From assembly GCA_001781205.1 (NCBI GenBank), contig MFLE01000014.1, forward strand, positions 26,107 through 90,106: a stretch of 64,000 nt of DNA. The letters run 5' to 3'. The stretch is from Candidatus Kaiserbacteria bacterium RIFCSPHIGHO2_02_FULL_49_34 (GTDB lineage Bacteria > Patescibacteriota > Minisyncoccia > Phycocordibacterales > UBA918). Positions 1,190 through 48,789 of this stretch are shown piece after piece; position 1 is the stretch's first letter, and each line of letters starts with the position of its first letter. The notes beneath the pieces are model-generated. The model saw only the letters and a program-made list of their open reading frames with translations. It was not told the DNA's origin and made no database searches. A program made the position numbers and the translations under genes.

Positions 1190-1198
1190 CTTGAGAAA

Positions 1199-1364
1199 TG
1201 TCATCCTCGGGATTTAGAAAGTAAACGAGCGAGAGCGAGTATTACTTTCAAATACCCGGGGATCCAGGCGTTAGAGCAATAGCTTTTCAGCCTGGATCCC
1301 CGGGTATGTGAAAAAAAACACGGACTAGACGTCCGTGTTTCTTTTCTACATCCCGAGGATGACA
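1199..1364. repeat. Nested inverted-repeat element (rearranged relative of family 1) that embeds a bidirectional terminator
   Basis: Outer IR tgtcatcctcgggat (1199-1213) / atcccgaggatgaca (1350-1364). Inner perfect 18-bp IR atacccggggatccaggc (1252-1269) / gcctggatccccgggtat (1290-1307). Shares the GGATCC and GGATGACA motifs with family 1. Confidence 0.7.
1311..1347. terminator. Bidirectional intrinsic terminator between the Gmad2-like gene and tig
   Basis: A8 run, hairpin cacggac-taga-c-gtccgtg, then T-rich tttcttttct. Serves the convergent genes on either side. Confidence 0.7.
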
Positions 1365-1381
1365 GTTCTTTGAGGTATTTG

Positions 1382-2473: not shown

Positions 2474-2615
2474 ACTAATATTATTTATAGCCGCAGTCTA
2501 CTGAATTTGACAAAAAATGCAATGTTTCTGAACTATTCTGAGAAAATTGCTGAAACGGGGTGACCGTGCTACCATCGCAATGGTTTTGAACTTTTTTACT
2601 TCTTTGGAGGTATCT

Positions 2616-2789
2616 ATGGCTCGCAGACATAATAATTTTTCTGCAAACAAAATTCGGAAAATTTCCAAACAAATCAAAAGCTCACGGCGCATCTATCATG
2701 CAAAGAGTCATGCAGAGTTTTGCCTGCAGGACATGCCGCCTGAACTTTGGATTGCACTTGTGCGCATTATACTCATGAGGAACATGTAG
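2616..2789 (+). CDS. Small basic hypothetical protein (57 aa)
   Basis: ATG at 2616 preceded by tggaggt (SD-like) 7 nt upstream; MARRHNNFSANKIRKISKQIKSSRRIYHAKSHAEF...; followed by a terminator hairpin. Confidence 0.3.
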   Translation: MARRHNNFSANKIRKISKQIKSSRRIYHAKSHAEFCLQDMPPELWIALVRIILMRNM

Positions 2790-2805
2790 CAGCATGAACT
2801 ATAGA

Positions 2806-2838
2806 TGTATACACAAAAAACGACAGTACGCTGTCGTT
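2806..2838 (+). terminator. Intrinsic terminator
   Basis: aaaaaacgacagtacgctgtcgtttttctt: stem acgacag/ctgtcgt plus a T-run. Confidence 0.6.
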
Positions 2839-2864
2839 TTTCTTATGGTGTCTGTTGGAAGAAA

Positions 2865-3269
2865 TTATTGAATGGTATCCAAGTCAGAGGTAATTTCGTC
2901 GAGTTCTGCATCGATGCTCGAGAAGTCGAGTGACGCTTCGAGTTCGGCGCTTATGCCATCGAGATCGCGAATGGCACGCTCTTCATCGGTCTCAACCGGA
3001 ATGTTGACCACGGGGATTTCATCAGTTACATCAGGCTCCACAGTCGTCATATAGTAGTACGTGCCTGCGATAATCATGGCAACAAGGATAAGTCCAAAGC
3101 CAATCCAGACAGCGACACTGCTTTTGGCGCCACTTTGATTTTCAATGGGTGTTGCACCCATGATGTTTTCGGTGGTATTCATCTGAGCGCCGCCAACGGA
3201 AAATGTTGTAGGTGCTTGTGGGGGAGCTTCGTTTGCAGGGGCTCCTTGTGGGGTTGTGTTTTCTGGCAT
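2865..3269 (-). CDS. Hypothetical membrane protein (Pro-rich N-terminus, one TM, acidic C-terminus)
   Basis: ORF with TM segment VAVWIGFGLILVAMIIAGTYYYM; co-directional with, and 12 nt downstream of, the next gene. Confidence 0.45.
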   Translation of the reverse strand: MPENTTPQGAPANEAPPQAPTTFSVGGAQMNTTENIMGATPIENQSGAKSSVAVWIGFGLILVAMIIAGTYYYMTTVEPDVTDEIPVVNIPVETDEERAIRDLDGISAELEASLDFSSIDAELDEITSDLDTIQ

Positions 3270-3280
3270 ATATATAATGA

Positions 3281-4099
3281 TTATTCGCTAGTAGTTGTTG
3301 CTTCTGCGTCAACCTCGGCGTCTACCTCTGCCTCTGCCTCAACTGCGGGACGTGCACCTAAGCTACGCGCTGCTTCTTTAATTGTTGCAGCCGCTTCATT
3401 GATAAGTGCGCGAATCGCATGCACTTCAGCAATCACCGCGGCGAAATCTGCACGAGCAGTAGCCCATGCTTCAGCGGGAGTTGACGATGATACCGCAAGT
3501 TCAGCATCTTCTGGGAGGTCGACGAGCGATACCTTGAGTGTAGCAATACGAGCATCGACAGCAGTGAGCGCGGTCATTGTTGCAGACACATCGGCACCCT
3601 TTTCTTCGAATGCTTCGGCACGGGTACGGAGTAATGCTGATGCGTCAGTCAAACGTGTTGCAGCATCTTCGATACGTTGCGCTGCACGTCGAACGCGCTC
3701 AGCGATACGGGTAAACATTTCATTGGTAATCGCGAGCTTCTTTGCGGCGATACGCGCTTCAATTTCTGCGCGTTTTTCGTCGCGAGCAGCAAGGGCAGCT
3801 TCTCTGTTTTCTGCAACTTGACGCGTTGTGGTCTGCACGCGTTCTTGTGCAAGCACGCGAAGTTCAGCAGCTTGTGCTTGGCGCTCTGATGTAGTAGCAC
3901 TTCCTTGCGCACGTGTTTCCACTTGCGCTACCGCGCGACTTTCGGCCGAGGCTTCTGCCTGTAGACGCATATCAGTTTCCACCTGCGCACTGCGGGGTGT
4001 TTCGCGGATATAGCCCGCATTTGTCTGTGCATGCACCGACCCCACGGTGACGGCAAACATGGCGACGAGCGCCGTTCCTGTATATATATTTTTCTTCAT
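3281..4099 (-). CDS. Secreted Ala/Arg/Glu-rich coiled-coil protein (hypothetical)
   Basis: Signal peptide MKKNIYTGTALVAMFAVTVGSVHAQ, then long predicted helical low-complexity sequence. Confidence 0.5.
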   Translation of the reverse strand: MKKNIYTGTALVAMFAVTVGSVHAQTNAGYIRETPRSAQVETDMRLQAEASAESRAVAQVETRAQGSATTSERQAQAAELRVLAQERVQTTTRQVAENREAALAARDEKRAEIEARIAAKKLAITNEMFTRIAERVRRAAQRIEDAATRLTDASALLRTRAEAFEEKGADVSATMTALTAVDARIATLKVSLVDLPEDAELAVSSSTPAEAWATARADFAAVIAEVHAIRALINEAAATIKEAARSLGARPAVEAEAEVDAEVDAEATTTSE

Positions 4100-8913: not shown

Positions 8914-9124
8914 AAAACTACCGAGCAGTTTCGCAGCGACACAATCGCCACTAAGTTACTTGCGCTCTATCGCGAAATACTCACACCACAGAAACAGACA
9001 ATGTCCGCTACTTGAAACTGGACCTCCTTACAGAAAAAGAGCCGCCTTGTAGTACTCTAAGACTTGTTTTCTTCAGTCCGTGCTATACTTTACTCATGAG
9101 ACGCTTGACGTTCCGTATATTTTT

Positions 9125-10075
9125 ATGCAGCAACATCATCACGCGCATACACGAATACTGAAACGCCTTTTCCTCTTGTTTTATATCTCAATTGGTCTTG
9201 TGGTGTTTTTGCTGAGTATTCCGTTGTGGAAGTCTATCGAGGAGAAGCAGAACGAAAAAGCTATCCATGCGGCGGATATGCTTTTTGCTCCTGTGGCTGA
9301 AAACATATACGAATACTCCGGACTCATTGTCGAGCAAGTCGAACAGATTAAGGAAAGGCATGCCACAAGCGAATTCTACCCCGAAAGCATCGCCACCATT
9401 ACACACTTCGACAAGGTACGTCCAACCAGCATCACTCGCTACCATGCGAGCACCTCTCTCTCATGGCATCGTATACAAGGTGCAGACGGAACATATACCG
9501 ACACTATCATAGAAGGTTCAGTTATTCGTAAAGAAATATACCTGCACGCGCTTAAGCTTCATAAGGGTGATATAACCATCATGTCCGCCCGCGAAGCGCC
9601 ACCATGTGAAGACATGCGCAACGTCCCGTCACTTCACTGTAATGCGAAAAACAGTATCGTCTATGTTATGGCAGTCTTCCATGATGCATCGGATAAACCA
9701 ACTGATATTCTCGCTATCGCCTACCCGATAGATATATGGATGACGGGGCTAATGCGTGGAGAGGTTTCACTCCCCGAAAATGCCTTCATCGTAGATGCGG
9801 AGGGGTACTATCTCTGGCATGGCAAAGATCCTAAAAAAGCCACCGAGCGAGCAGAGCGCGTAGACAGCAGTTTCTACAGCGACTTCCCCAAAACCTACAG
9901 TGCCATGATTGCAGGCGCAGGAGAAACATTCATAAAACAAAAACGCGAGCGAATACATCTTACTTCCCTCTACCCCGCCATCGAAAGACGATACGGTGGC
10001 GCGAACGTAAATATTCCAAACCCCTTCGTCCCCGCCGCGCTTAGATTTTTAATCATTGGTCTTAAAGAAAAATAA
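9125..10075 (+). CDS. Hypothetical membrane-anchored protein with a large extracytoplasmic (Cache/sensor-like) domain
   Basis: One N-terminal TM (LFLLFYISIGLVVFLLSIPLW); TATACT at 9085-9090 upstream. The track ORF begins at GTG 9080. Confidence 0.45.
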   Translation: MQQHHHAHTRILKRLFLLFYISIGLVVFLLSIPLWKSIEEKQNEKAIHAADMLFAPVAENIYEYSGLIVEQVEQIKERHATSEFYPESIATITHFDKVRPTSITRYHASTSLSWHRIQGADGTYTDTIIEGSVIRKEIYLHALKLHKGDITIMSAREAPPCEDMRNVPSLHCNAKNSIVYVMAVFHDASDKPTDILAIAYPIDIWMTGLMRGEVSLPENAFIVDAEGYYLWHGKDPKKATERAERVDSSFYSDFPKTYSAMIAGAGETFIKQKRERIHLTSLYPAIERRYGGANVNIPNPFVPAALRFLIIGLKEK

Positions 10076-10078
10076 CGT

Positions 10079-10747
10079 ATGAAAAAAACACAAAAGAAAG
10101 CAAGTTTATTAAAAATTAGTATTTTCAGTGTACTGTTCTTACTTCTAAGTGCCGCACCTCTCTATTTCATTGCAGAGAAAAGTGTTCGCAATACCATGCA
10201 GACACAAGCAGAAATGTTTGTACAAAAGATAGATACAAGACTTTTTACGTCGCTTACTGGAACACGCGACGATCTTGACACGCCTGCATATAAGGAACTA
10301 AAATCTGCATTCATAACATTGAAAGAACCACATGATAATATTGCGTTTCTTTATACCGCAGGAATCCGCAACGCAGCATACCGAGCAAAAACAGGAGACA
10401 TTCGCGATGAGAAAGAAGTATTTTTCTACCTCGACAGTGAACCTGAAGACTCGTACGATATCTCCCTCCCTGGCGATATTTACGATGATGCGAGCAGAGC
10501 GCTGTATAACTTATTTGAAACAGGAGAACCATACATTGTAGGACCAGAAACCGATGCATGGGGTACCTGGGTAAGTGTACTCTTACCTATTGGCGGCGAT
10601 ACGCTTGAAACACGTATAGCGTTTGGGGTTGATTACCACGCAGAAACATACACTCGTACGGTGCTTTGGCATCTCTTCAAACTTATGAGTATTCCTCTCC
10701 TCATTCTTTGTATCGGACTCGGTATCTATTGGCGTAAGAAAAAATAA
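10079..10747 (+). CDS. Hypothetical TM-periplasmic domain-TM protein
   Basis: N- and C-terminal hydrophobic helices flank a ~150-aa domain; 3 nt downstream of the previous gene. Confidence 0.45.
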   Translation: MKKTQKKASLLKISIFSVLFLLLSAAPLYFIAEKSVRNTMQTQAEMFVQKIDTRLFTSLTGTRDDLDTPAYKELKSAFITLKEPHDNIAFLYTAGIRNAAYRAKTGDIRDEKEVFFYLDSEPEDSYDISLPGDIYDDASRALYNLFETGEPYIVGPETDAWGTWVSVLLPIGGDTLETRIAFGVDYHAETYTRTVLWHLFKLMSIPLLILCIGLGIYWRKKK

Positions 10748-10748
10748 T

Positions 10749-12056
10749 ATGAAGATTAAGAAGCAGCACCGTATGAGGACTATTTTAATTGCTTTTGGCG
10801 CTTTTTGTGTAGTTGGCGCTAGTGTCTTTGTTTATTTCTTCATGCGTCCTGCGCCAATTCTTCGATTCTCATGGATTGAGAATTATCAAGGGAAAAATTT
10901 TCAAGCAGTACTTCGGGCATACGAGGAAGAAATGGGCGTGAAAACTACCTATACCCGCTATCAAGAAGAAGACTACACTGAATTTCTTGCAAAAACAGCA
11001 ACAGTGCCTGACGACGAAAAACTCGCCGATATCGTCATCGTTTCTCCTCGTTTCTTTAAACAAAATCCAGATATATTTCTCCCAATAACCGACTTTATCC
11101 ATGAACACAATGTTCGTGGCACCATGGTTGCGCAATTCGTTGATGCGGCAGCAAGTCATCCTGACCATGACAGTGAATACATTGGGCTCCCTTTGATGGG
11201 CGGCACGACAATTCTCGTCTATCGCCGAGACCTTTTTGAAGATGAGCGCCACAAAGCGATGTTTGCAGAGCGGTATGGCTACGAACTTGCTGTGCCACGA
11301 CTGTGGGGTGATATGCGTGATGTTGCGGAATATTTCACGAACCCCGAGCAAGGCATGGTTGGTTTCAGTATGCCGTTTAGTGATCATGATGGGTCACTTT
11401 CTAAAAGTTTAGAGTCATTTTGGTACACCTTTGCAGAGCCTTCAAATAAAAAGCATAGAAGTCTTAAGGAAATACTAGGATCCGACAACGCCATCCGTAC
11501 ATATATGCTTATCCATTCATGGGCACCCTTCCTTTCAAAGGAAGCCATTACTGGCGGCAGTGTGATTGCGCGCAAAGATTTCGCAGAAGGCAAGGCAGCG
11601 ATGGCGCTCCTTGACAGCGAGTATCTTATCCTCCTTGAAAATCCAGCGTTTAACGCCCATAAAGAAAACACTGGTTACGCCATCGTGCCTGCTGGTGAAT
11701 TCGGTCGCACAACATCAGCCTCTGGCGCAGTCATGGGAATAATCAACCATGACAAATCAAAAGAAGCACTTAAGTTCTTTGCATGGTTTAATACTTCCAG
11801 AGCACAGCAAATCTGGACAGATGCTGGCGGACTTTCCGTATTTAACAGAACACTCCAGTCCCAAAAATTCCTCCAAGATAAGCCGTACCATCCAATCTAC
11901 AAAGACGCACTCGCCCACACCGTTCCTATATCTCCTCTCAAAACAAATCTGGAAGAGCTCACGTTGGTCAATACGGAACTTCAAGACTTTCTCCTCAATC
12001 CCGAAAACCACACCCCCGAGACATCCATAGCGCGACTCCTTGAGGTACTTCAGTAA
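10749..12056 (+). CDS. Extracellular solute-binding protein (ABC-transporter SBP family 1-like)
   Basis: N-terminal TM anchor; ~430-aa SBP-sized protein with general SBP_bac_1-like features. Confidence 0.5.
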   Translation: MKIKKQHRMRTILIAFGAFCVVGASVFVYFFMRPAPILRFSWIENYQGKNFQAVLRAYEEEMGVKTTYTRYQEEDYTEFLAKTATVPDDEKLADIVIVSPRFFKQNPDIFLPITDFIHEHNVRGTMVAQFVDAAASHPDHDSEYIGLPLMGGTTILVYRRDLFEDERHKAMFAERYGYELAVPRLWGDMRDVAEYFTNPEQGMVGFSMPFSDHDGSLSKSLESFWYTFAEPSNKKHRSLKEILGSDNAIRTYMLIHSWAPFLSKEAITGGSVIARKDFAEGKAAMALLDSEYLILLENPAFNAHKENTGYAIVPAGEFGRTTSASGAVMGIINHDKSKEALKFFAWFNTSRAQQIWTDAGGLSVFNRTLQSQKFLQDKPYHPIYKDALAHTVPISPLKTNLEELTLVNTELQDFLLNPENHTPETSIARLLEVLQ

Positions 12057-29162: not shown

Positions 29163-29600
29163 ATGTCTACTCTCGTAACCAGTCCGCGTGCGCGGTATGA
29201 TTTTGAGATTCTTGAAACGCTCACCGCGGGGGTTTCTTTGTTGGGTACGGAAGTTGCATCGCTCAAGAAAAACCAAGGAAAGCTCATTGGTTCGTATGTG
29301 AAGCTTATCAAAGGCGTACCAATGCTACTTGGTGCATATATTCCGCCATTCCAGGTTGCGAACGCACCAAAAGACTACTCCCCCACTCGCGACCGAGCGC
29401 TACTTCTCAATAAAAAAGAAATCGCGAAGCTCGAACGCGAACTCCACGAAAAAAACCTCACTCTCATCCCGCTCCGCTTCTTCCGCGGCGGCCCCCACAT
29501 CAAACTAGAAATCGCCCTTGCAAAAGGCAAAAAGAAATTCGACAAACGCGAAACCATCAAAAAGCGCGACATCTCCCGTGATATTGCTCGTAAAATTTAG
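29163..29600 (+). CDS. smpB: SsrA-binding protein SmpB
   Basis: ARYDFEILETLTAGVSLLGTEV...IPLRFF...GKKKFDKRE. Confidence 0.9.
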   Translation: MSTLVTSPRARYDFEILETLTAGVSLLGTEVASLKKNQGKLIGSYVKLIKGVPMLLGAYIPPFQVANAPKDYSPTRDRALLLNKKEIAKLERELHEKNLTLIPLRFFRGGPHIKLEIALAKGKKKFDKRETIKKRDISRDIARKI

Positions 29601-31191: not shown

Positions 31192-31591
31192 GGGGATGAC
31201 AGGCTTTGACGGTTACGGTCCGTGCGAATGGCGCGTGTCGAAGATGGTGTTGTGCTTCGTAAAAACACACCAACCCTTAATTGCAAAAGCAATCAAGAGT
31301 CCTTACGCTCCAGCGTACGGATACGCATACGCTGCATAGGTTGAGCCGTTAGGCTCCCTCGCACGTTGCGCGTTACGCTTCGTTCGTCATATCTCGAAGC
31401 AGTGGCGTTATATCGATATGACTCGGCAGGAGCACGGCGTTCTACGCGCTCCACTTAAAAAGCAAGAACTGCACTTCGCCTTCTCGTTCACTCTCTCGAA
31501 AGCGAAGTTAAGCCCCAAGAGTGTCCTACACACGTAGACACCCTCGCACACCATAATTCGGACGAGAGTTCAATTCTCTCCATCTCCACCA
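31192..31591 (+). ncRNA. ssrA: tmRNA (SsrA)
   Basis: 5' GGGGATG pairs with 3' CATCTCC-ACCA (the G3:U wobble alanine identity element is present); T-arm-like gagagttcaattctctc. Internal tag reading frame ...SPYAPAYGYAYAA followed by TAG (ending near 31347). smpB lies 1.6 kb upstream. Confidence 0.8.
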
Positions 31592-32760: not shown

Positions 32761-32856
32761 GACACCATACTACCATTCTTTTTGGTAAGAACGGTAGTTG
32801 ACTTTCATGTGTTGTGCTATGCTTATCAACATATGTTACATACAAAAGCAAAAGGT

Positions 32857-33246
32857 ATGCTTGATGAATTCAAAGCATTCGCCATGAAGGGCGACGTTGT
32901 TGACCTTGCGGTGGCAGTTGTTATTGGTGGTGCGTTTGGGAAGATCGTCTCGTCACTCGCAAGCGACATTATCATGCCTGCAGTTGGTGTACTGGCAGGT
33001 GGTATAAACTTTACGGAGTTACGCTTGACCGTTGGCGCAGCAGAAATAAAATACGGCATCTTCATCCAGTCAATCATTGATTTTACCATCATTGCCTTTG
33101 CGCTCTTCTTTGCCATTAAGATACTTGCGCGCCTTAAGAAAAAAGAGGCAGTAGTACCTATGTCTGATACGGTGGCTGAAATTAAGGAGGAGGTACGTGA
33201 GGAAGTATTGCTTCTTCGAGAAATTCGCGATACTCTCCAGAAATAA
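32857..33246 (+). CDS. mscL: Large-conductance mechanosensitive channel
   Basis: MLDEFKAFAMKGDVVDLAVAVVIGGAFGKIVSSLASDIIMP... The track ORF starts at 32782. Confidence 0.85.
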   Translation: MLDEFKAFAMKGDVVDLAVAVVIGGAFGKIVSSLASDIIMPAVGVLAGGINFTELRLTVGAAEIKYGIFIQSIIDFTIIAFALFFAIKILARLKKKEAVVPMSDTVAEIKEEVREEVLLLREIRDTLQK

Positions 33247-33269
33247 CCGCAACGTTGACATTTCTTAGA

Positions 33270-33298
33270 AACAAAAACAGGAAAAATTCCTGTTTTTT
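33270..33298. terminator. Bidirectional terminator
   Basis: aaaaacaggaaaaattcctgttttttct. Confidence 0.7.
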
Positions 33299-33328
33299 CT
33301 CTATAGCATAATGACTATGTCCGCACAC

Positions 33329-34033
33329 CTATTCCTCCGAGTTATCTACACAGAGATTATTGATGTGCTCTATAAATATTTTGAAGGATGGAGATTTGCT
33401 ACATGCCAATTCTATGTTGATCTGACCGCCAAATAGCTGCCCTTGTCCTATTCTTTGTCCACAATATTCTGCTGTCAGAATTTCATCAAGGACACCTTTC
33501 GGATCTGGGATCTCGTCAGTATCTTGAAGTGCTCTTAAGCGTGTTAATTCAACATCTTTTGAAGCATCAAAACAATCCTCTTCAAATGTTGAACCTGCGA
33601 GAAACCATGATTCCACTTCTTGTTTTGCTATATGCACAGATTGGTTGATGTCGGCAAATGCGCTATTACATGCGTTTAGAAATGCTTGTTTTCTTTTTTC
33701 AATATCTCCCTCTGAAAGTGAGTCGCGGTCTGAGATAAGAATAACCTCTGCCTGATGGCTAGCAAGACCATACATGCTTATCTTTGAGTTCAAGAGTAGT
33801 CGCGCCTTTCTATATATTCTGGATTTCTCCATCTCGTTCCAGCCACCAGAACTATTACTTCCTGGATGTCCAATTACTGCATAGGAATCTGACGATGTAC
33901 TTTTAATTAAGAAATACTCATTCTTACTACCTGCATCAGTAAATCCGTAATGAGAAATGAGTAATGACTTAACAAATTCTCTCGTTGTTGCATCTTCCAG
34001 AATAAACAGTATGACTATTGGATTTTTTATCAT
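33329..34033 (-). CDS. Stand-alone TOPRIM-like nuclease partner of the upstream OLD-family ATPase (RloB/DUF4435/DUF4276-like); defence-system component
   Basis: N-terminal IVILFILEDATTREFV (TOPRIM Glu motif) and central VILISDRDSLSEGD (DxD motif). AT-rich codon usage; 5 nt downstream of the ATPase gene. Confidence 0.55.
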   Translation of the reverse strand: MIKNPIVILFILEDATTREFVKSLLISHYGFTDAGSKNEYFLIKSTSSDSYAVIGHPGSNSSGGWNEMEKSRIYRKARLLLNSKISMYGLASHQAEVILISDRDSLSEGDIEKRKQAFLNACNSAFADINQSVHIAKQEVESWFLAGSTFEEDCFDASKDVELTRLRALQDTDEIPDPKGVLDEILTAEYCGQRIGQGQLFGGQINIELACSKSPSFKIFIEHINNLCVDNSEE

Positions 34034-34038
34034 ACTGA

Positions 34039-35412
34039 TTATTTCTTATTTGTAGCATCTGTAGGAAATATGTCATCCAACGTGCCATCACTAAATAATT
34101 CAGAATTACGCATCTCTTCTAACCAGCTCGTATCTCCAGGAATTTTTGAGATAATATCTGCATACGTATACATATTTGAATTACAGCTCTCTCGCTTGCC
34201 GTTTACAAAATGTGTATCTTTAAGCCAAAACAATTCATCACGAGTAAACCTATCTATAAAATGCGGCGAATGCGTTGTGATAAAAATCTGTACTTTGGAC
34301 GCTATGCCACGCAACACCTCTACGTACTTTTCAGTAAGTGATGGATGAATTATTGATTCAACTTCATCAAAAAGCATCACGCTCGGCATTCTATAGCTCC
34401 TTGCAGAGGTATCTAAAAAAATCCAATTTTTAAGGGTTATGAAATAGAGGAGCACTACCGTACCTGCAGAAAGAGTTGCTATGCTCTTCGGCGATGCTGG
34501 TGACTCTATGAGAACTGTGCCTTTCGTGGGGAAGGAGCCCGATGTTGCAATTTCAACTTTTGTAAGAATATTTTCGGTATAAAGTGACAAATCGGAACAA
34601 TAACGCGCAAATGCTTTCTTGTCTCTCTGAATATCAGCGAGAAGATGTATAAACTTTGCTTTACTAAAACTAGATACAGACCAATCCTGTTCTTGTTTAT
34701 TTATTCTCTGCACAACCTGCTCTTGCTCTTCCTCTCCATATTTTTCAGTGACATAATTAAATATTTTGTTCGAACTAAATTCGTTATCGTTATCATCTAC
34801 CCAATTTGTATGGATTCTTTCACTGCATTCTTTATATATATCCATCAAAAACGGATTTCTAATCTCCTTCTCAGTCTCGCGAAGCTCATCTGCATTCTCT
34901 ATATTTTTCTTGAATTCACGCTGATACACCAACTCATTACTCACATTGAGTGCACTTTCTCTCATTTGCGAGACAATACCACTTCTTCTAGTCACTTCAT
35001 TAAAATCAGACTGATCGACTTCTTTCGTAGATTTTTTTCCACTATAGAAAAGTTCATATTTCTTTGAAGATCCTGTTTTTTCTATGGAATTAATAAATAT
35101 GAAGTCAGATATTGACATATGATCTAACTTAATTTTTGCGCTCTCCTCTATGCGATAATATGTTCTGGCTTCGCCTATATTACTCAATGTAATTTTAAAA
35201 TCAGTCTTCTTTTTTCCTGGACCATATGTCACAATATTATCGAAAAAGACATCAGTAAAATCATTACGGACCTCAGCTATATGTGAAAGCGCTTTAAGAA
35301 AGTTAGTTTTTCCGCTAGAATTTCTTCCTGTTATTATATTTATTGGACCAAACTCGCTTTCCACATTAAGCAAATTCCTAAAGTTCCTTATTTCAATATT
35401 TTTGATTTTCAT
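34039..35412 (-). CDS. OLD-family / AAA_15-AAA_21-type ABC ATPase (AriA/AbiLi-like); defence-system component
   Basis: MKIKNIEIRNFRNL...Walker A GRNSSGKTN; ABC signature-like LSAGTVVLLYF; Walker B VMLFDEVESIIHP; H-loop ITTHSP. About 30% GC. Start set to ATG 35412; the track ORF runs to 35472. Confidence 0.7.
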   Translation of the reverse strand: MKIKNIEIRNFRNLLNVESEFGPINIITGRNSSGKTNFLKALSHIAEVRNDFTDVFFDNIVTYGPGKKKTDFKITLSNIGEARTYYRIEESAKIKLDHMSISDFIFINSIEKTGSSKKYELFYSGKKSTKEVDQSDFNEVTRRSGIVSQMRESALNVSNELVYQREFKKNIENADELRETEKEIRNPFLMDIYKECSERIHTNWVDDNDNEFSSNKIFNYVTEKYGEEEQEQVVQRINKQEQDWSVSSFSKAKFIHLLADIQRDKKAFARYCSDLSLYTENILTKVEIATSGSFPTKGTVLIESPASPKSIATLSAGTVVLLYFITLKNWIFLDTSARSYRMPSVMLFDEVESIIHPSLTEKYVEVLRGIASKVQIFITTHSPHFIDRFTRDELFWLKDTHFVNGKRESCNSNMYTYADIISKIPGDTSWLEEMRNSELFSDGTLDDIFPTDATNKK

Positions 35413-35553
35413 AAATTTGAGCAGACCTATGTTTATATGTATAAAATGTACTCCTATATGTAGAAAAGTCAAGTTAAATATCCATATATCAATATTATCA
35501 TTCAGAAATCTTCGTTAAACCGCTGACATGCAGCGTTTTTTGTGGCTCTTCTA

Positions 35554-37920
35554 CTATTTTGTGCGTGGCGTCCATGTCCAGGCGTCGATTTCTTCGGGGT
35601 CGATCGCGTTTTCTATTATGTAGGCGCGGTGGTCGGTTAGTTTTTTTCGATACTGTTTTATGAGTTCGTCGGCTTTTGTTCGGGCGACGACGCCCGCGGT
35701 AACCATTTCTTCCCAGACTTCGATCGCGAGACTGTAGCGATCGGTGTTGTTGCGGATATGCATGTCGAACGGCGTTGTGGTTGAGCCGTTTTCTTCGTAG
35801 CCGTGTACGAGGAATCGTCGCCCACTCCCATTGCAGGCATAGTCGAAAAGCATTTGTTTGAGTGTTTGTGGGTATCCGTGGAAGTTGAAGAGGACTGGTT
35901 TGTCGTGCGTGAAATAGTCGTTGAAATTTGCGTGAGGAAGAGCGCATTCGCCCGAGCCGATACCGAGTGCGTTGAGGGTGATGATGTTCACAAAACGTAT
36001 GCGAACATTCGGTGTTTCTCGCTTCACGATGTCGAGTGCGGCGAGGCCTTCTTTGGTAAGGTAATCACCGATGGTTGCAATGATGATGTCGGGGCGGTCG
36101 TCGGATGCAAAGTCCCAGGTCATAATGCCGGCGTCGACTGCTTTCTGCGCCTCCGCGGGGGTGAGCCAGCGTGGTTCGAGCGTCTTCCCCGCGGTGATGA
36201 TGTTGATTTCTTGCGTTGAGGCGAGACATCGCTTGAGGCATGCGAGTGTGGTGTTGCCATCGGGTGGGTAGTAGGCATTCACGAAGCAGCCTTGGCGGTT
36301 GAGCATATCATCAACGAAGCCGGGGTTTTGATGCGAGAAGCCGTTGTGGTCTTGCCGCCAGCCTGATGAGGTGAGGATATAGTTGAGTGACGGAACTTTG
36401 CCACGCCATGAAACACTGCGGGCGATTTTCAAAAACTTTGCGTACTGGTCTACCATCGAGACAACGATTTGGATAAATGCTTCGTATGAGGCAAAGATGC
36501 CGTGACGTCCCGTAAGCACATAGCCCATGTACATACCTTGGAGGGTATGTTCGGAAAGCATTTCCATGACTCGTCCGTCGGGGGCGAGGTCCTTATCCCA
36601 CGCTTCGCGCTTTCCTACCCATGCGCGAGAGGTCTTTGTAAAGACTTCATCGAGTTTGTTTGAGTAGGTTTCATCGGGAGAAAAGAGGCGGAAGTTTTTT
36701 GCCTCGCTATTGCGTGCGAATACTTCGGTGAGGTAGGCGCCTGTACGACGCATTGATGAGGAGCCTACCGTTCCCGGAACATTTGCGTCTTCGGTGTAGG
36801 TCTCGATGTCGGGGAGTTCGAGTGGCGTGTATGCTGGCGAGCCGCCGCGCGCGTGTTTGCTTGAACCCATACGAAGTTCGGCAGGCGGAATTATTGCGCG
36901 AATATCTTCGGCGAATGTGCCATCAGTAAACAGCTCAGGGAAATTATATGAACGGAGCCATGTTTCAAGTGCGGTGAGATGTGCAGGGTTTGTCGCCGCT
37001 TCTTTGGCAATGACTTGGTGTGACAAGTGATTTCCCTCGAGCTTTTCGCCGTCGAGCTCGGCAATACCTGTCCAGCCTTTTGGAGTGCGCAAGATAATCA
37101 TTGGCCATTTTGGCACTTCCGCAACCTGCGCCTCGCTACCGCGTGCTGCTGTTTGGATTGTATGAATCTGTGCGTGTGCGGCACGGAGCGTTGCTTGCAT
37201 TACGGCGTACACGTCGCGCGTATCAGCAGCATCAACAATGTAGACCGTGTAGCCGTAGCCGGTAAAGAGGTGGGAGAGCTCAGCATCCGTCATGCGGCCG
37301 TAAATAGTTGGACCTGAGATTTTATAGCCGTTCACATGCACAATCGGGAGCACGGCACCTGAAGTTTTTGGATCGACGAATTTATTGCAGTGCCACGCGG
37401 TTGCGGTCGGCCCTGTTTCTGCTTCGCCGTCGCCGATGAGTACGGCGGTGATGAGGTCGGGGTTATCGAGCACGGTGCCGTAAGCTGTTGCAAGTGCGTA
37501 GCCAAGTTCGCCGCCTTCAAGAATAACGCCTGGCGCTTCAGGGTTGCTATGTGACGGGTAGCCATACGGCCAGCTGAAATTACGACAAAGGTGCATGATG
37601 CCTTCTGTGGACACAGGAAGGTTTGCATCAACATCGCCGAGCGAACCTTCAAGAAAAAGGTTTGCTTGGAGCGCAGGAAAGCCGTGTCCCGGGCCGAGTA
37701 CAAACATCATTTGTTGCTCTTTTTCGCTAATGAGCGCATTCAACTGTGCATAGGTAAAGTTAATACCAGGGCACGTTCCCCAATGCCCCAAAAGACGAGG
37801 CTTCACATCGATGTGCGCAAGCGGCTTTTCTAAGAGCACATTGTCGCGTAAATAAATTTGTGCCGCTGAAAGATAATTTGCAGCACGAACATAACGTTTT
37901 AGAGCATCAGTTGATATCAT
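35554..37920 (-). CDS. xfp: Xylulose-5-phosphate/fructose-6-phosphate phosphoketolase
   Basis: …GHWGTCPGINF…; the ~790-aa XFP family. TATACT 6 nt upstream of ATG 37920. The track ORF runs to 37962. Confidence 0.85.
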   Translation of the reverse strand: MISTDALKRYVRAANYLSAAQIYLRDNVLLEKPLAHIDVKPRLLGHWGTCPGINFTYAQLNALISEKEQQMMFVLGPGHGFPALQANLFLEGSLGDVDANLPVSTEGIMHLCRNFSWPYGYPSHSNPEAPGVILEGGELGYALATAYGTVLDNPDLITAVLIGDGEAETGPTATAWHCNKFVDPKTSGAVLPIVHVNGYKISGPTIYGRMTDAELSHLFTGYGYTVYIVDAADTRDVYAVMQATLRAAHAQIHTIQTAARGSEAQVAEVPKWPMIILRTPKGWTGIAELDGEKLEGNHLSHQVIAKEAATNPAHLTALETWLRSYNFPELFTDGTFAEDIRAIIPPAELRMGSSKHARGGSPAYTPLELPDIETYTEDANVPGTVGSSSMRRTGAYLTEVFARNSEAKNFRLFSPDETYSNKLDEVFTKTSRAWVGKREAWDKDLAPDGRVMEMLSEHTLQGMYMGYVLTGRHGIFASYEAFIQIVVSMVDQYAKFLKIARSVSWRGKVPSLNYILTSSGWRQDHNGFSHQNPGFVDDMLNRQGCFVNAYYPPDGNTTLACLKRCLASTQEINIITAGKTLEPRWLTPAEAQKAVDAGIMTWDFASDDRPDIIIATIGDYLTKEGLAALDIVKRETPNVRIRFVNIITLNALGIGSGECALPHANFNDYFTHDKPVLFNFHGYPQTLKQMLFDYACNGSGRRFLVHGYEENGSTTTPFDMHIRNNTDRYSLAIEVWEEMVTAGVVARTKADELIKQYRKKLTDHRAYIIENAIDPEEIDAWTWTPRTK

Positions 37921-38073
37921 GTGCGCAGTATACCACCAGACACCAAAATCAGTGAGATTCAAAAAAACCGCGAGCGCTATCTCGTGGTTTTTTAGAACAC
38001 TATTCAGAACAATCTAATTCTTTTAAAATTTACTTCAACCAGTGCAGATGGACCAATTTTGAAAGAATTAGGA

Positions 38074-44910: not shown

Positions 44911-46752
44911 TTAATCAGAGGTCATGACACGGCTGCCTGCAGATCCATTACAGAAATTATTTCCAACACCACAGGAGACAGCAACGAATATACCTCCACC
45001 ATATGTGACGCCCCTCCAGTTATTTTGAGCGGCTGAGGTTCGAGATGTCCAAGTGATGCCGTCTGGTGAAGTCATGACACGGTTGCCAGCACCAGTACGT
45101 GACACTGCAACAAAGAGGTCTTGTCCATAGGTGACGGATTGCCAGCCATTGTCTGGAGCACTTGTGCTAGTTGTCCAAGTGATGCCGTCTGGTGAAGTCA
45201 TGACACGGTTGCCAGCACCCGTAACAGCAACTGCGACAAAGAGTCCGTTGCCGTAGGTGACGCCGACCCAGCTATTATCTGCAGCACTGGTTTGAGTTGT
45301 CCAGGTGATGCCGTCGGGTGAGGTCATGACGCGATCGCCGGTACCGTTACTAGACACTGCGACAAAGAGTCCGTTGCCGTAGGTGACGGAGCTCCATTGG
45401 TTAGTTGTAGCACTGGTACGGGAAGTCCAAGTGATGCCGTCGGGTGAGGTCATAACACTGTTCACCGTACTGTCGTTAGACACTGCGACAAAGAGTCCGT
45501 TGCCGTAGGTGACGCCGACCCAGCTATTATCTGCAGCACTGGTTTGAGTTGTCCAGGTGATGCCGTCGGGTGAAGTCATGACGCGATCGCCAATACCATT
45601 CCCTGCAACGGCGACGAAGAGACCATTGCCATAGGTGACGGAGCCCCAGGCATTATCTGCAGCGCTGGTTTGGGATGTCCAGGTGATGCCGTCAGGTGAG
45701 GTCATGACGCGGTTGCCGAAGCCTGTGCTTGCAACTGCGACAAAGAGTCCGTTGCCGTAGGTGACAGAGTTCCAGAAGTTATCCGCAGCGGAGACACGAG
45801 ATGTCCACTCAACGCCTGCTTGCGCCTTCGCAATCACCGCAATGGTGTTTGCTCCTGTGCAGGTACCCTTCACTCCACTTGCAGGAATAGCAATGTTCCA
45901 GTAAAGGTTTGCGGAGAGCTCGTTAGATTCGTCGGTACGGAGGAGGATGTTTCGTTTTGCTGAAGCAGGAGTATCGGTAAGAACAATTGATGTGGCATGA
46001 TCGACATCGGTGAGCGCCCACGCCTGTGTTGAAGTAGCGAGTGTACCGAGTGCGCTGCAGCCCATATTCGAACCAGAGAGCTGCACATCAGCCTTTGTGT
46101 TGCCTCGCTGTGTGATGACTGTCTCTACGTTTGTGGTTGATGATGAAACTTCACCAAGTGAACGAGTGCCGTAATCAATAACATCGGGGAGATTGAGAGC
46201 AAGAAGTGAGTTAACTTCTACTGTTGCAGAAAGAGCACCTTGTGTTGACGCAAAATCTTGAACAGTAACATATGCGGTCCAACTATCGCTTGTATAGGCA
46301 CTTGCTGCATCAGTTGCATCAATCCAGTAAGCAAGCGGCACTTCACAGTTGTAGGCGATTTCTGTGTCGGAGCCTTCGGAGTAGTTCGTGGTACAAGAAT
46401 TAATTACGTAGCAGTCGTTGTTGTCGGCGGCGCAGGTGTTGGTACTGCTTGTTTTGTGGAAGACAAGAGCGAGTGTTGATGAAGCAATATCGTTTTCTCC
46501 GTTTGCATCAGAGATTTGTCCGTTGATGTGAATAGTTCTGTCAGTACCGACGTTCGGGAGAATACCTGAGCTTGTTAAATCATCTGTGCCGTACGCGGTT
46601 GTGGCGATACGGATGGTGTCGACGGTTGGTGCAACGTTAATAATTTCTGCAGTGGTTGCGACATCGGCTGCGCCAGTGTAGCGGATGATGATTCCTACGA
46701 TGAGGAGGAATGCGACGACAATCAAGGTGCCGAATATTTTTATATTTGTCAT
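44911..46752 (-). CDS. Membrane-anchored surface protein with 8 tandem ~38-aa Asp-box-like (SPDGITWT) repeats, paralog A
   Basis: N-terminal MTNIKIFGTLIVVAFLLIVGIIIRYTGA anchor; ~300-aa Thr/Ser-rich domain; repeats GNRVMTSPDGITWTsrTSAadNnWxSVTYGNGLFVAVs. The track ORF runs to 46824. Confidence 0.7.
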   Translation of the reverse strand: MTNIKIFGTLIVVAFLLIVGIIIRYTGAADVATTAEIINVAPTVDTIRIATTAYGTDDLTSSGILPNVGTDRTIHINGQISDANGENDIASSTLALVFHKTSSTNTCAADNNDCYVINSCTTNYSEGSDTEIAYNCEVPLAYWIDATDAASAYTSDSWTAYVTVQDFASTQGALSATVEVNSLLALNLPDVIDYGTRSLGEVSSSTTNVETVITQRGNTKADVQLSGSNMGCSALGTLATSTQAWALTDVDHATSIVLTDTPASAKRNILLRTDESNELSANLYWNIAIPASGVKGTCTGANTIAVIAKAQAGVEWTSRVSAADNFWNSVTYGNGLFVAVASTGFGNRVMTSPDGITWTSQTSAADNAWGSVTYGNGLFVAVAGNGIGDRVMTSPDGITWTTQTSAADNSWVGVTYGNGLFVAVSNDSTVNSVMTSPDGITWTSRTSATTNQWSSVTYGNGLFVAVSSNGTGDRVMTSPDGITWTTQTSAADNSWVGVTYGNGLFVAVAVTGAGNRVMTSPDGITWTTSTSAPDNGWQSVTYGQDLFVAVSRTGAGNRVMTSPDGITWTSRTSAAQNNWRGVTYGGGIFVAVSCGVGNNFCNGSAGSRVMTSD

Positions 46753-46760
46753 ATGTGCAT

Positions 46761-46797
46761 AGTATACCTTGATTTGTGAAATCAGATAGTGGACAAC
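46761..46797 (-). promoter_or_regulatory. Promoter of paralog A carrying the shared motif
   Basis: On the coding strand: GTTGTCCAC, 22 nt, TATACT, 8 nt, ATG. Confidence 0.5.
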
Positions 46798-46837
46798 CTC
46801 ACAGGAACTAGCACTACCATTCATGTGTATTAAAAAA

Positions 46838-46864
46838 TCCCCTGGAGCGGGATTTTTGATTAGG
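46838..46864. terminator. Terminator after surface protein gene B
   Basis: aaaaatcccctggagcgggattttt. Confidence 0.7.
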
Positions 46865-46872
46865 CCTTATTA

Positions 46873-48693
46873 TTAATCAGAGGTCATGACGCGGTTGCCG
46901 GTGCCGTTATATGAAACTGCAACAAAGAGTCCGTTATTGTAGGTAACTGAGACCCAACCATTATTTGCGGCGCTGGTACGAGACGTCCAAGTGATGCCGT
47001 CAGGCGAGGTCATGACGCGGTTGCCGGTGCCAGTGTTAGAAACTGCTACGAAGAGGCCGTCGCCGTAGGTAACTGAATTCCAGTTATTGGCAGCAGCACT
47101 CGTGCGGGAGGTCCAAGTGATGCCGTCAGGCGAGGTCATGACGGTATCATTCGTGCCCGTGAAATCAGAAACTGCAACAAAGAGTCCGTTGCCGTAGGTG
47201 ACACTGAGCCAGTTGTTATCTACAGCACTCGTGCGGGAGGTCCAAGTGATGCCGTCTGGTGAAGTCATGACACGGTTACCAGTACCGTTATACGAAACTG
47301 CTACGAAGAGACCGTTGCCGTAGGTGACGGAGCGCCAGTTGATATCTACAGCGTTGACGCGAGACGTCCAAGTGATGCCGTCAGGCGAGGTCATGACGCG
47401 GTTGCCGGTGCCAGAGTCAGAAACTGCTACGAAGAGACCATTACCGTAGGCGACGGAGCGCCAGAAGTTGTCTGCTGCTGAAGTTTGGGATGTCCAAGTG
47501 ATACCGTCTGGTGATGTCATGACGCGGTTACCAGCACCAGAGTCAGAAACTGCTACGAAGAGACCGTTACCGTAGGCGACGGAGTTCCAGCTGTTATTTG
47601 CAGCACTCGTGCGAGACGTCCAAGTGATGCCGTCAGGCGAGGTCATGACGCGGTTGCCGGTGCCAGTGTTAGAAACTGCTACGAAGAGGCCGTCGCCGTA
47701 AGTGACGGAGCGCCAGTTGTTATCTACAGCACTCGTACGAGACGTCCACTCAATACCTGCTTGCAACTTTGCAATCACTGCAATTGTGTTTGCACCAGTA
47801 CATGTCCCCTTCACGCCAGTTGAAGGAATAGCAATGTTCCAGTAAAGGTTTGCGGAGAGCTCGTTAGATTCATCAGTACGAGGTGCAACGTTTCGTTTTG
47901 CAGGAGTGAGTGTTCCTGTAAGTATAGTTGACGAAGCGTGGTTGATATCAGTAAGCGCCCAGGCTTGTGTATTCACAGGTAGCGTACCAAGTATACTACA
48001 GCCCATAACATCACCAGAGACTTGCACATCAGCTCTTGTGTTGCCACGTTGCGTGATGACGGTTTCAATGTTTGTTGTTGATGACGAGACTTCACCAAGT
48101 GAACGAGTGCCATAATCGATAGCATCGGGGAGATTGAGAGCAAGAAGCGAGTTCACCTCGATGGTTGCTTGTAGTGCTCCTGATGTTGAAGTCAAATCAG
48201 CGACGCTGACGTATGCAGTCCAATTGTCACTAGTGAATGCCGACCCTGCATCGGTTGCATCTATCCAGTACGCGAGCGGTACTTCACAGTTGTAGGCAAT
48301 CTGTGTGTCATCGCCGTCGGCGTAATTTGTATTGCAGGTTGTAATGCGATAGCAGTCGTTGTTGTCGGCGGCACACGCACCTGTTGCTGAGGTTTTATGA
48401 AAAACGAGACTGATAGTGCTTGAGGCAATGTCATTTTCTCCGTTTGCGTCGCTCATGACACCATTGATATGAATGGTTCTATCGGTACCTACGTTCGGGA
48501 GAATACCTGAGCTTGTTAAATCATCTGTGCCATACGCAGTGGTTGCAAAACGAATCGTATCAACGGTTGGTGCGGTATTCTGAATTTCTGCAGTTGTTGC
48601 GACATCGGCTGCGCCGGTGTAGCGGATGACGATTCCTACGATGAGGAGGAATGTGACGGCGACGAGTGTGCCGAATATTTTTATATTTGTCAT
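46873..48693 (-). CDS. Membrane-anchored surface protein with 8 tandem Asp-box-like repeats, paralog B
   Basis: Near-identical N-terminus and architecture to paralog A, indicating a tandem duplication. The track ORF runs to 48762. Confidence 0.7.
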   Translation of the reverse strand: MTNIKIFGTLVAVTFLLIVGIVIRYTGAADVATTAEIQNTAPTVDTIRFATTAYGTDDLTSSGILPNVGTDRTIHINGVMSDANGENDIASSTISLVFHKTSATGACAADNNDCYRITTCNTNYADGDDTQIAYNCEVPLAYWIDATDAGSAFTSDNWTAYVSVADLTSTSGALQATIEVNSLLALNLPDAIDYGTRSLGEVSSSTTNIETVITQRGNTRADVQVSGDVMGCSILGTLPVNTQAWALTDINHASSTILTGTLTPAKRNVAPRTDESNELSANLYWNIAIPSTGVKGTCTGANTIAVIAKLQAGIEWTSRTSAVDNNWRSVTYGDGLFVAVSNTGTGNRVMTSPDGITWTSRTSAANNSWNSVAYGNGLFVAVSDSGAGNRVMTSPDGITWTSQTSAADNFWRSVAYGNGLFVAVSDSGTGNRVMTSPDGITWTSRVNAVDINWRSVTYGNGLFVAVSYNGTGNRVMTSPDGITWTSRTSAVDNNWLSVTYGNGLFVAVSDFTGTNDTVMTSPDGITWTSRTSAAANNWNSVTYGDGLFVAVSNTGTGNRVMTSPDGITWTSRTSAANNGWVSVTYNNGLFVAVSYNGTGNRVMTSD

Positions 48694-48701
48694 ATATGCA
48701 T

Positions 48702-48739
48702 AGTATATCTCCACTTTGCGAAAACACGAAGTGGATAAC
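48702..48739 (-). promoter_or_regulatory. Promoter of paralog B carrying the shared motif
   Basis: On the coding strand: GTTATCCAC, 23 nt, TATACT, 8 nt, ATG. Confidence 0.5.
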
Positions 48740-48789
48740 GCTTGGTTTGACAGACTCACCACAAGTCGCTTCTTTCTTCACGGGTACTT

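Follow-up and report, generated by a model that had tools for sequence, protein, structure and literature searches.

An ABC ATPase-DUF4276/TOPRIM gene pair with signs of horizontal acquisition in a Candidatus Kaiserbacteria genome: a divergent member of the HEC-01/Mad3-Mad4 class

[quoted passage not shown] A further pair, the PADLOC candidate HEC-01, consists of the ABC ATPase HEC-01A and the DUF4276/TOPRIM protein HEC-01B (Payne et al., bioRxiv 10.1101/2024.01.29.577857), the latter having the metal site of the Burkholderia pseudomallei OLD nuclease, BpOLD (bioRxiv 10.1101/2024.01.29.577857). The only HEC-01 pair that has been tested, from the proteobacterium P. agarici, did not protect E. 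coli from any phage (bioRxiv 10.1101/2024.01.29.577857). DUF4276 belongs to the Toprim superfamily and is homologous to Mad4 (PMC12065111), and the Mad3-Mad4 module of MADS likewise combines an AAA_15/21 ABC ATPase with a DUF4276 TOPRIM protein. In PARIS (AriA and AriB) an ABC ATPase and a separate TOPRIM effector also share one operon, while in the OLD-family nucleases (P2 Old, class 1, class 2/GajA; 6nk8, 6p74) the two are fused in one chain.

The window considered here, i.e. the whole stretch of DNA that was analysed (64 kb), derives from Candidatus Kaiserbacteria, a CPR bacterium, in keeping with the reduced and possibly episymbiotic host supposed in the first-pass annotation. It carries an ATPase gene and a gene for a TOPRIM-like partner, both on the minus strand and 5 nt apart, flanked by the genes for phosphoketolase and MscL; the co-directional arrangement, coordinates, intergenic gap, neighbours and terminator reported in that annotation were all recovered. 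The features of the locus are as follows.

33299..35553, no strand assigned: AT-rich cassette segment (36.0% G+C), from the phosphoketolase stop codon to the terminator held in common with mscL
34039..35412, minus strand: ABC-type ATPase gene (AAA_15/AAA_21), 457 aa from ATG
33329..34033, minus strand: gene for a DUF4276 / OLD-type TOPRIM plus helical-domain protein, 234 aa
35554-37962, minus strand: phosphoketolase (XFP domains)
32782-33246, plus strand: MscL (Pfam, 1e-37)
33266..33303, no strand assigned: bidirectional intrinsic-terminator hairpin common to the cassette and the convergent mscL, with T-runs on both strands
35445..35472, minus strand: promoter-like site TTGACT, 16-nt spacer, TACATT (consensus match alone)
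35305..35328, minus strand: Walker A / P-loop GRNSSGKT, ATPase residues 29-36 (from sequence)
34363..34368, minus strand: Walker B Asp-Glu, D349 and E350 (invariant in 33 homologues)
33995..33997, minus strand: predicted TOPRIM glutamate E13 (LED motif) at the end of strand beta1 (conservation and model)
33722..33730, minus strand: DxD motif D102-R-D104 at the end of strand 94-102 (conservation and model)
33611..33619, minus strand: E139-V-E141 (EIESW motif), after strand 130-136 (conservation)

The promoter-like site lies within an AT-rich spacer of 141 nt that separates the phosphoketolase stop codon (35554) from the ATPase ATG (35412). An in-frame TTG further upstream, at 35472, would extend the ATPase from 457 to 477 aa. 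The partner gene is probably translationally coupled to the ATPase gene. Downstream, the terminator hairpin (17-bp-class stem, MFE -20.3 kcal/mol, z -2.5) serves both directions. The surroundings of the cassette comprise xfp, a pilin gene, mscL and ackA, and no defence or mobility genes adjoin it in the 64-kb window; more specifically, the window ORFs include no methyltransferase, other mad gene or HNH gene near the cassette, and no GajB-like helicase, UvrD-like or RT gene stands beside it. An Rfam scan of the island returned nothing except tmRNA, the gene for which is 1.7 kb from the cassette with ackA and mscL in between, and is not the junction.

The translated ATPase contains MKIKNIEIRNFRNL, GRNSSGKTN, LSAGT, LFDEVE and ITTHSP, so that every motif quoted from it in the first-pass annotation is present, and the Walker A, ABC signature, Walker B (D-E) and H-loop follow one another in canonical order. 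Among 33 homologues G29, N31 and K35 of the Walker A are invariant, and S32, S33 and G34 are conserved in at least 90%; the signature S315-x-G-T318 and the H-loop pair H381-S382 are likewise invariant. Pfam searches, which had been proposed as a check, gave AAA_21 (6.8e-18) and AAA_15 (6.3e-17), and UniProt automatically names the protein a GajA/Old/RecF-like AAA domain protein. Its model has an ABC head fold, into which a beta-rich segment is inserted at about residues 69-180, and is nearest to the heads of SMC and Rad50; the sequence also matches the N-terminus of RecF. Among PADLOC models the best match is mad3 (1.9e-20), but mad3, AriA, HEC-01A, AbiLi and PtuA score about equally. The earlier assignment to the OLD family is sound in pointing to an OLD-like ABC ATPase and loose as a label, since OLD proteins are ATPase-TOPRIM fusions, the genes here are separate, and the five PADLOC model families are nearly tied.

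The partner, automatically named a DUF4276 family protein by UniProt, matches Pfam DUF4276 at 2.3e-7 (31.7 bits, gathering cut-off 30.2), a family that was also on the list of searches proposed earlier. The match covers residues 13-224, which correspond to positions 2-191 of the 192 in the profile, and 49 of the 87 members of the partner family match the same profile. The matches of both proteins are far beyond chance. The motifs FILEDATTRE and ISDRDSLSEGD, parts of which had been picked out as TOPRIM signatures, are present in the translation, and the residues predicted to be catalytic are conserved, E13 and D102xD104 being invariant or nearly so in the family. E13 is invariant in A1 and A2 and found in at least 90% of 87 sequences; in the model it stands between a strand (6-12) and a helix (15-29), and it aligns with E10 of HEC-01B and with the VEGDTE motif of OLD TOPRIM domains. 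D102 is invariant among the 87 sequences and D104 in A2, the two aligning with D66/D68 of HEC-01B, while E139/E141 align with E101/E103; E141 is again invariant, and W143 is kept in at least 90% of the 87.

The metal-site residues of BpOLD have been described (PMC6755086), and E139/E141 are proposed as the putative counterpart of its metal-B ligands T506/E508. When the DUF4276-clade profile was compared by hhalign with four OLD TOPRIM domains, the Glu motif alone could be aligned, at 14% probability, and the correspondence of residues with BpOLD therefore stays at the level of inference. Four positions after the TOPRIM glutamate, at the place of BpOLD E404, the partner has Thr and not Glu or Asp (family consensus GEGxSE). 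The modelled fold is a TOPRIM-like three-layer alpha/beta structure resembling characterised TOPRIM nucleases. Its nearest structure is PH0156 of Pyrococcus horikoshii (PDB 2p62; DUF3226), an uncharacterised archaeal structural-genomics protein that carries no functional information, followed by the C-terminal regions of OLD nucleases. Foldseek against the PDB was uninformative, and partner profiles searched against PDB sequences failed to retrieve 6nk8 or 6p74. Relative to HEC-01B, the partner has an additional beta-hairpin insertion of about 35 residues (approximately 33-70).

Taken as an operon of an ABC ATPase and a DUF4276/TOPRIM protein, the identity of the cassette is practically certain. 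It belongs to the ATPase + DUF4276 class that comprises HEC-01 and the Mad3-Mad4 module of MADS, and is a divergent member of this already catalogued pairing, representing a deep-branching clade. The layout proposed earlier, with the gene of an OLD-like/AAA_15-AAA_21 ABC ATPase first and that of a separate TOPRIM-like protein after it, is borne out, and the two-gene layout and order are the same in HEC-01. The homology to HEC-01B extends over the full length of the partner (hhalign against the P. agarici protein, 98.9%, E 2e-17), each of the five acidic residues finding its counterpart in the alignment, and twelve PADLOC HEC-01B models match at E <= 1, in addition to a 190-position model, PDLC04143, at 1.6e-12. 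The ATPase matches HEC-01A at 3e-19 over nearly its full length, no better than it matches mad3 or AriA, and against the tested HEC-01A hhalign aligned only the C-terminal 85 columns, i.e. the part from signature to H-loop. In the PADLOC comparison suggested in the first-pass annotation both proteins matched HEC-01 models, the ATPase not distinctively, and the partner matched no PARIS or AbiL effector at E <= 1. The cassette also differs from HEC-01 in not lying inside an Hma system, and in its CPR rather than proteobacterial host. It is not a MADS locus: the ATPase scores 41.6 bits against the NCBIfam MAD3 equivalog cut-off of 420, the partner matches no model named mad4 at E <= 1, and neighbouring mad genes are absent. 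Compared with OLD-family systems it has no fusion, no PF20469 match in the partner, and no adjacent helicase or RT, and compared with Septu it has only partial PtuA matches (to the ATPase) and no PtuB-type HNH gene nearby.

The cassette shows signs of being a horizontally acquired two-gene operon. The island has 36.0% G+C against 49.2% for the remaining window (z = -6.0), no non-overlapping segment of the same length in the 64-kb window falls below 42.8%, and the island is also the top tetranucleotide outlier; both of the compositional comparisons proposed earlier therefore single it out. The break itself is real, although the flanks are not uniformly at the 55-57% first given for them: phosphoketolase is at about 50-57% and mscL at only about 44%, around a window mean of 49%. 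In the nearest relative available, Kaiserbacteria RIFCSPLOWO2_12_FULL_50_10 (AckA 83% identical), the pair is absent between xfp and ackA; mscL is missing too, and an MFS-fragment ORF occupies the place. As the search for empty sites in genome and metagenome scans recovered this one related species, the comparison shows absence but does not fix the exact insertion boundaries. Together, the compositional break and the absence from the closest available species support the horizontal acquisition suggested at the outset, and the synteny comparison proposed with it came out the same way. At the island itself no convincing direct or inverted flanking repeats, target-site duplication, terminal inverted repeats, tRNA or integrase were found. 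The pair is identical across 16 contigs, from several samples of the same population, and no mobile-element backbone surrounds it.

Homologous loci show that the two genes are strictly paired and co-evolving. The ATPase is followed by a partner of about 225 aa in 7/7 independent loci, the two genes either overlapping (at ATGA, or by 8 nt) or standing 1-5 nt apart, and the pairwise identities of the two proteins correlate across loci (r = 0.81, exact Mantel p = 0.0004). The pair is lower in G+C than its flanks in 8/8 loci. Contexts are unrelated, and some homologues adjoin large serine recombinases, a tyrosine integrase, or a type II methylase with a PDDEXK gene; a PADLOC scan of the neighbours confirmed only the type II methylase, and a JAB/ThiF cluster in locus L007 gave no PADLOC match. 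A word-index homology search started from the partner by itself retrieved no other protein, and its homologues were collected with a profile built from the neighbourhoods of ATPase homologues. The clade with partners of about 225 aa is small (35-57 representative clusters among 1.8 billion proteins), and its named members belong to Kaiserbacteria, Magasanikbacteria and 'Patescibacteria group'. Searches of phages, plasmids and IMG/VR for the ATPase clade returned remote ABC ATPases only and no close relatives.

The reading we favour, with moderate confidence that extends to the defence role itself, is that the cassette is an ATP-regulated TOPRIM nuclease module for defence or exclusion. Complex formation, nuclease activity, substrate, trigger and defence role are all inferred. 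An oligomer of the ATPase would bind the TOPRIM partner and act on it as a sensor or regulator driven by ATP; recognition of a cue associated with an invader would lead the oligomer to license the putative two-metal nuclease site of the partner (E13, D102/D104, E139/E141), which might then cut nucleic acid, either the DNA of the invader or, as PARIS does, RNA of the host or the invader. PARIS, in which a nuclease is sequestered and released, is a plausible mechanistic analogue. The outcome could be protection against phages or mobile elements, possibly through abortive infection.

The points counted for a defence module were the domains, the HEC-01B homology, the folds, conservation, pairing, co-evolution, horizontal transfer, the contexts of homologues and the published work on DUF4276 and on ABC ATPase-TOPRIM pairs. 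Counted against it were the inactive tested HEC-01, the lack of nearby defence or mobility genes, of a target-site duplication or terminal repeats, and of close relatives in phage, plasmid or IMG/VR collections, the short HEC-01A alignment, the Thr at +4, the weak profile similarity to OLD TOPRIM domains and the uninformative Foldseek result.

A selfish function is unlikely, though slightly less so than the other alternatives. The cassette would then be an addiction or toxin-antitoxin-like element, or a weapon in competition between mobile elements, in which the ATPase restrains a toxic nuclease; it would persist mainly through the harm that its loss causes and not through protection against phage. 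The Pfam entry for AAA_21 speaks of a putative toxin domain of AbiEii type, and a tight, co-evolving operon that bears signatures of horizontal transfer and adjoins recombinases in other genomes would suit such an element; however, there is no evidence of toxicity, and the pair is constant across its 16 contigs with no mobile backbone. Addiction and abortive-infection defence are hard to separate by sequence, as their mechanisms overlap.

A chromosome-directed ATPase-nickase with a role in repair, replication or the cell cycle, comparable to RecF/Rad50 or archaeal Cran1, is rather improbable. The resemblance of the ATPase to SMC/Rad50 heads and to RecF speaks for it, as do the failure of the tested HEC-01 to defend, the lack of flanking defence genes, and the precedent of Cran1, an OLD-family ATPase-TOPRIM protein of archaea with an essential non-defence role (PMC12796447). 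Such a housekeeping role fits poorly with the absence of the pair from the closest related species and with its strongly deviating composition; its family is moreover small and patchy, and the members occupy unrelated surroundings, in some cases with recombinases or an R-M methylase nearby.

That the cassette is a decaying or inactive defence remnant in a reduced genome is very unlikely. The partner in the window is the most divergent of its clade (23-26% identity to other members) and lacks an acidic residue at +4, and the partner gene of locus L003 is split. Against this, neither ORF is disrupted, every direct metal-ligand motif and every ATPase motif is kept, the sequence is identical in many independent assemblies, and long ORFs free of selection in DNA of 36% G+C would soon gain stop codons.

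The remaining explanation, that the cassette is PARIS (AriA/AriB) or AbiL (AbiLi/AbiLii), follows the label given in the first-pass annotation; an ATPase scaffold would then release a tRNA-cleaving nuclease of DUF4435/RloB type. It can be set aside as extremely improbable, since the partner matches neither DUF4435 (PF14491)/AriB nor RloB (PF13707)/AbiLii models at E <= 1 and matches DUF4276 instead, RloB being touched weakly by only 1/87 family members, and since the ATPase matches mad3 and HEC-01A at least as well as AriA and AbiLi, and its model is closer to the heads of SMC, Rad50 and PtuA than to AriA.

Returning to the defence or exclusion module, the architecture is already catalogued and both proteins carry automatic UniProt names, so the finding is incremental and not surprising; what the cassette adds is a deep-branching clade of the ATPase + DUF4276 (HEC-01 / Mad3-4) class. 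To our knowledge, stand-alone activity has yet to be shown for this class, and a positive assay on the cassette or a sister would for that reason validate it. More speculatively, the clade with partners of about 225 aa might be an immune module that is functional and largely confined to Patescibacteria, with a distinct surface for trigger sensing or docking built from the clade-specific beta-hairpin of the TOPRIM protein and the beta-rich insert of the ATPase; we regard this as a tentative possibility. If true, it would join the very small number of defence systems known from CPR bacteria, and its target might be RNA, as for PARIS, rather than DNA. The genomes of CPR/Patescibacteria are tiny, the defence systems recognised in them are few, and phages of these bacteria are almost unknown (PMC12366544). 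The ATPase-TOPRIM cassette, clearly acquired and intact, offers a concrete candidate for the means by which such episymbionts may resist phages or foreign DNA.

Between the phosphoketolase (xfp) and acetate kinase (ackA) genes of the Candidatus Kaiserbacteria (CPR/Patescibacteria) metagenome-assembled genome RIFCSPHIGHO2_02_FULL_49 lie two co-directional genes, encoding an ATPase (OGG61887.1 in GenBank) and a smaller partner protein (OGG61886.1). Both ORFs, and the AT-rich segment that holds them, are where the first-pass annotation had placed them, on the minus strand and 5 nt apart. The region contains the following features:

31192–31591, plus strand: tmRNA gene (ARAGORN; Rfam RF00023, 120 bits), tag peptide AKAIKSPYAPAYGYAYAA
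32782–33246, plus strand: mscL, convergent to the pair (Pfam MscL, 1e-37)
33266–33303, no strand assigned: strong hairpin, T-runs on either strand, downstream of the partner
33329–34033, minus strand: partner ORF, 234 aa
34039–35412, minus strand: ATPase ORF, 457 aa
35472–35445, minus strand: promoter-like site TTGACT-16-TACATT
35554–37962, minus strand: phosphoketolase, its stop codon lying upstream of the ATPase

The phosphoketolase stop codon is separated from the ATPase by an AT-rich spacer of 141 nt, in which the promoter-like site is the single one of its kind. Some gene callers choose an in-frame TTG at 35472, which adds 20 residues (477 aa), but 34 ATPase homologues (442–479 aa) begin aligning at MKI..., so ATG 35412 is the likely start. 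The hairpin can terminate both the ATPase-partner operon and the convergent mscL. Past mscL are ackA, the tmRNA gene and a Na/Ca exchanger, with smpB (~29163–29600) about 1.6 kb from the tmRNA gene. Islands often integrate at tmRNA genes; here ackA and mscL stand between that gene and the AT-rich cassette, and no repeat connecting the tmRNA gene to the island was found.

The segment 33299–35553 has a G+C content of 36.0%, compared with 49.2% across the remainder of the window (z = -6.0; the lowest among same-length, non-overlapping windows is 42.8%), and is the strongest tetranucleotide outlier of the window. The compositional break proposed earlier is real. The flanking value of 55–57% G+C given at that time holds for parts of the phosphoketolase gene only, whereas mscL lies at ~44% and the window averages 49%. 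mscL (44%) may be a local acquisition too. The second strongest tetranucleotide outlier (44911–48762, minus strand) consists of two tandem EPTP-repeat proteins of ~630 aa, one of which also matches DUF6242. Elsewhere, adjacent ORFs of 331 and 222 aa (9080–10747, plus strand), upstream of a solute-binding protein gene, have no Pfam match; the latter lies within 10001–11000 (~41% G+C), the second-lowest-GC kilobase outside the island.

Sixteen contigs, drawn from several samples of the same organism, all show an identical arrangement of the pair. The one related species recovered, Kaiserbacteria RIFCSPLOWO2_12_FULL_50_10 (AckA 83% identical), retains pilin-xfp ... ackA, and both the pair and mscL are absent from its xfp-ackA slot. 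At the position corresponding to window 32761–35553, two loci of this species carry instead:

L016, 8629–9282, minus strand: 217-aa ORF matching the first half of MFS_1 only
L018, 7243–7896, minus strand: the same 217-aa ORF

This ORF probably represents a piece of a transporter. The window has mscL and the ATPase-TOPRIM pair in that slot; since the contents differ between species, the xfp-ackA slot is a variable region. The island lacks target-site duplications, terminal repeats, a tRNA and an integrase, and no close relatives turned up in phage, plasmid and IMG/VR collections.

The ATPase matches the Pfam models AAA_21 (6.8e-18), AAA_15 over its full length (6.3e-17) and, at threshold, SMC_N. 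The key residues of its Walker A (GRNSSGKT), signature (LSAGT), Walker B (LFDEVE) and H-loop (TTHSP) motifs are invariant in 33 homologues, and an AF2 model built from their alignment is confident (pLDDT 87.8, pTM 0.89), with a beta-rich insertion at residues ~69–180. PADLOC scores are so close together (mad3 1.9e-20, AriA 2.8e-19, HEC-01A 3e-19, AbiLi 2.5e-18, PtuA 4e-17) that the system cannot be assigned from the ATPase alone, and the protein falls far under the cut-offs of the NCBIfam equivalogs MAD3 and PtuA.

The partner passes the Pfam gathering threshold of DUF4276 (31.7 vs 30.2 bits) over nearly the full profile, and matches thirteen PADLOC models of HEC-01, a candidate system of ABC ATPase (HEC-01A) and DUF4276/TOPRIM protein (HEC-01B), at E <= 1 (best 1.6e-12). 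No AriB, AbiLii or Mad4-named PADLOC model matched it at that threshold. Of the earlier PARIS/AbiL-like proposal, the class (an ATPase with a separate TOPRIM-like protein) stands, but the family names are wrong. The best-matching model, PDLC04143, is labelled HEC-01A, the ATPase component, yet is just 190 positions long and matches the partner, not the ATPase, so that the label seems to have been swapped or to be ambiguous.

The partner is very divergent: in a word-indexed search of 5.8 billion proteins it retrieved itself alone. Relatives were therefore collected from the gene directly downstream of ATPase homologues, and profiles built from these. An exhaustive profile search of 1.84 billion representatives retrieved 35 clusters with E <= 1e-30, rising to 57 at <= 1e-10 and to 361 at <= 1e-3. 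Strong matches are proteins of ~225 aa, and weaker ones are canonical DUF4276 proteins of ~180 aa, aligned from about position 70 on. Pfam matches among 87 aligned members were DUF4276 (49), OLD-like_TOPRIM (5), DUF3226 (4) and RloB (1).

Conserved partner residues are E13, D102, D104, E139, E141 and W143, with D102 and E141 invariant in all 87. In its AF2 model (pLDDT 81.4, pTM 0.82), E13 ends beta1, D102xD104 ends strand 94–102 and E139/E141 directly follow strand 130–136; the C-terminal domain is helical. In the OLD nuclease BpOLD, metal A is bound by E400, D455 and D457, and metal B by E508, assisted by T506 and E404 (PMC6755086). The pattern E13 / DxD / E139-x-E141 matches this arrangement, from which we infer residue-level equivalence. 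At +4 after the TOPRIM Glu the window partner has Thr, whereas the family consensus GEGxSE and OLD VEGDTE are acidic. Against four OLD TOPRIM domains, hhalign aligned the Glu motif alone, and Foldseek was uninformative.

Payne et al. (bioRxiv 10.1101/2024.01.29.577857) list in their Supplementary Table 2 the HEC-01 proteins that they tested, from Pseudomonas agarici, with the B component annotated as 'DUF4276 family protein'. The partner-family profile and this HEC-01B align end to end (hhalign 98.9%, E 2.2e-17), E10, D66, D68, E101 and E103 corresponding to E13, D102, D104, E139 and E141; the partner differs by a clade-specific insertion of ~35 residues (~33–70), modelled as three beta-strands. 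The ATPase profile aligns with HEC-01A from signature motif to H-loop only (95%, E 3e-8). DUF4276 belongs to the Toprim superfamily and is homologous to Mad4 (PMC12065111), and MADS3-4, PARIS and AbiL have been grouped as ABC-ATPase + TOPRIM systems (PMC11464382).

A ~225-aa partner directly follows the ATPase in 7/7 independent loci, with overlaps of 4 or 8 nt or gaps of 1–5 nt, and two further pairs (P0015/P0076 and P0013/P0083) are implied by contigs of matching length. Pairwise identities of the two proteins correlate (r = 0.81, exact Mantel p = 0.0004), the partner evolving faster. One homologous locus is represented by two nearly identical assemblies, and its partner gene is intact in L004 (7361–8053, 230 aa) and split in L003 (7361–8390, 177 + 56 aa), by either frameshift/pseudogenisation or assembly error. 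G+C of the pair is 4–14 points below its flanks in 8/8 loci, the contexts are mutually unrelated, and large serine recombinases occur around the pair in three (L001, L005, L007). The stretch directly downstream of the pair in L005 (8016–13341) encodes a PDDEXK_11 protein and a type II adenine methylase (PADLOC 6e-92), together with a tyrosine integrase and a large serine recombinase, a setting that looks like a defence island or integrative element. The patescibacterial locus L007 has, ~2 kb upstream of its pair, a four-gene cluster (942–4085, plus strand: a 496-aa protein, Prok-JAB, ThiF/E1-like and a 92-aa protein) that resembles ubiquitin-like conjugation modules of the Bil/CBASS-accessory type; its four proteins matched no PADLOC model at 1e-5.

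The identity of the operon as ABC ATPase plus DUF4276/TOPRIM is secure, and its horizontal acquisition into the variable xfp-ackA slot is well supported. To our knowledge, the relatives of this architecture that have been characterised (OLD, Gabija, PARIS, AbiL, MADS) are all defence systems; because of this, and because the cassette is patchily distributed and foreign in composition and its homologues adjoin recombinases and R-M genes, our best inference is a candidate role in defence or exclusion. By analogy, the putative nuclease might act on DNA, as in OLD, or on RNA, as in PARIS. Set against a defence role, the one HEC-01 tested did not protect E. coli, and OLD-family proteins include an archaeal one that acts in the cell cycle (PMC12796447). 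The cassette is a divergent member of an already catalogued system class, of a clade seemingly associated with CPR bacteria, and its chief value is that it offers a candidate immune module from a group of bacteria for which few are known (PMC12366544).
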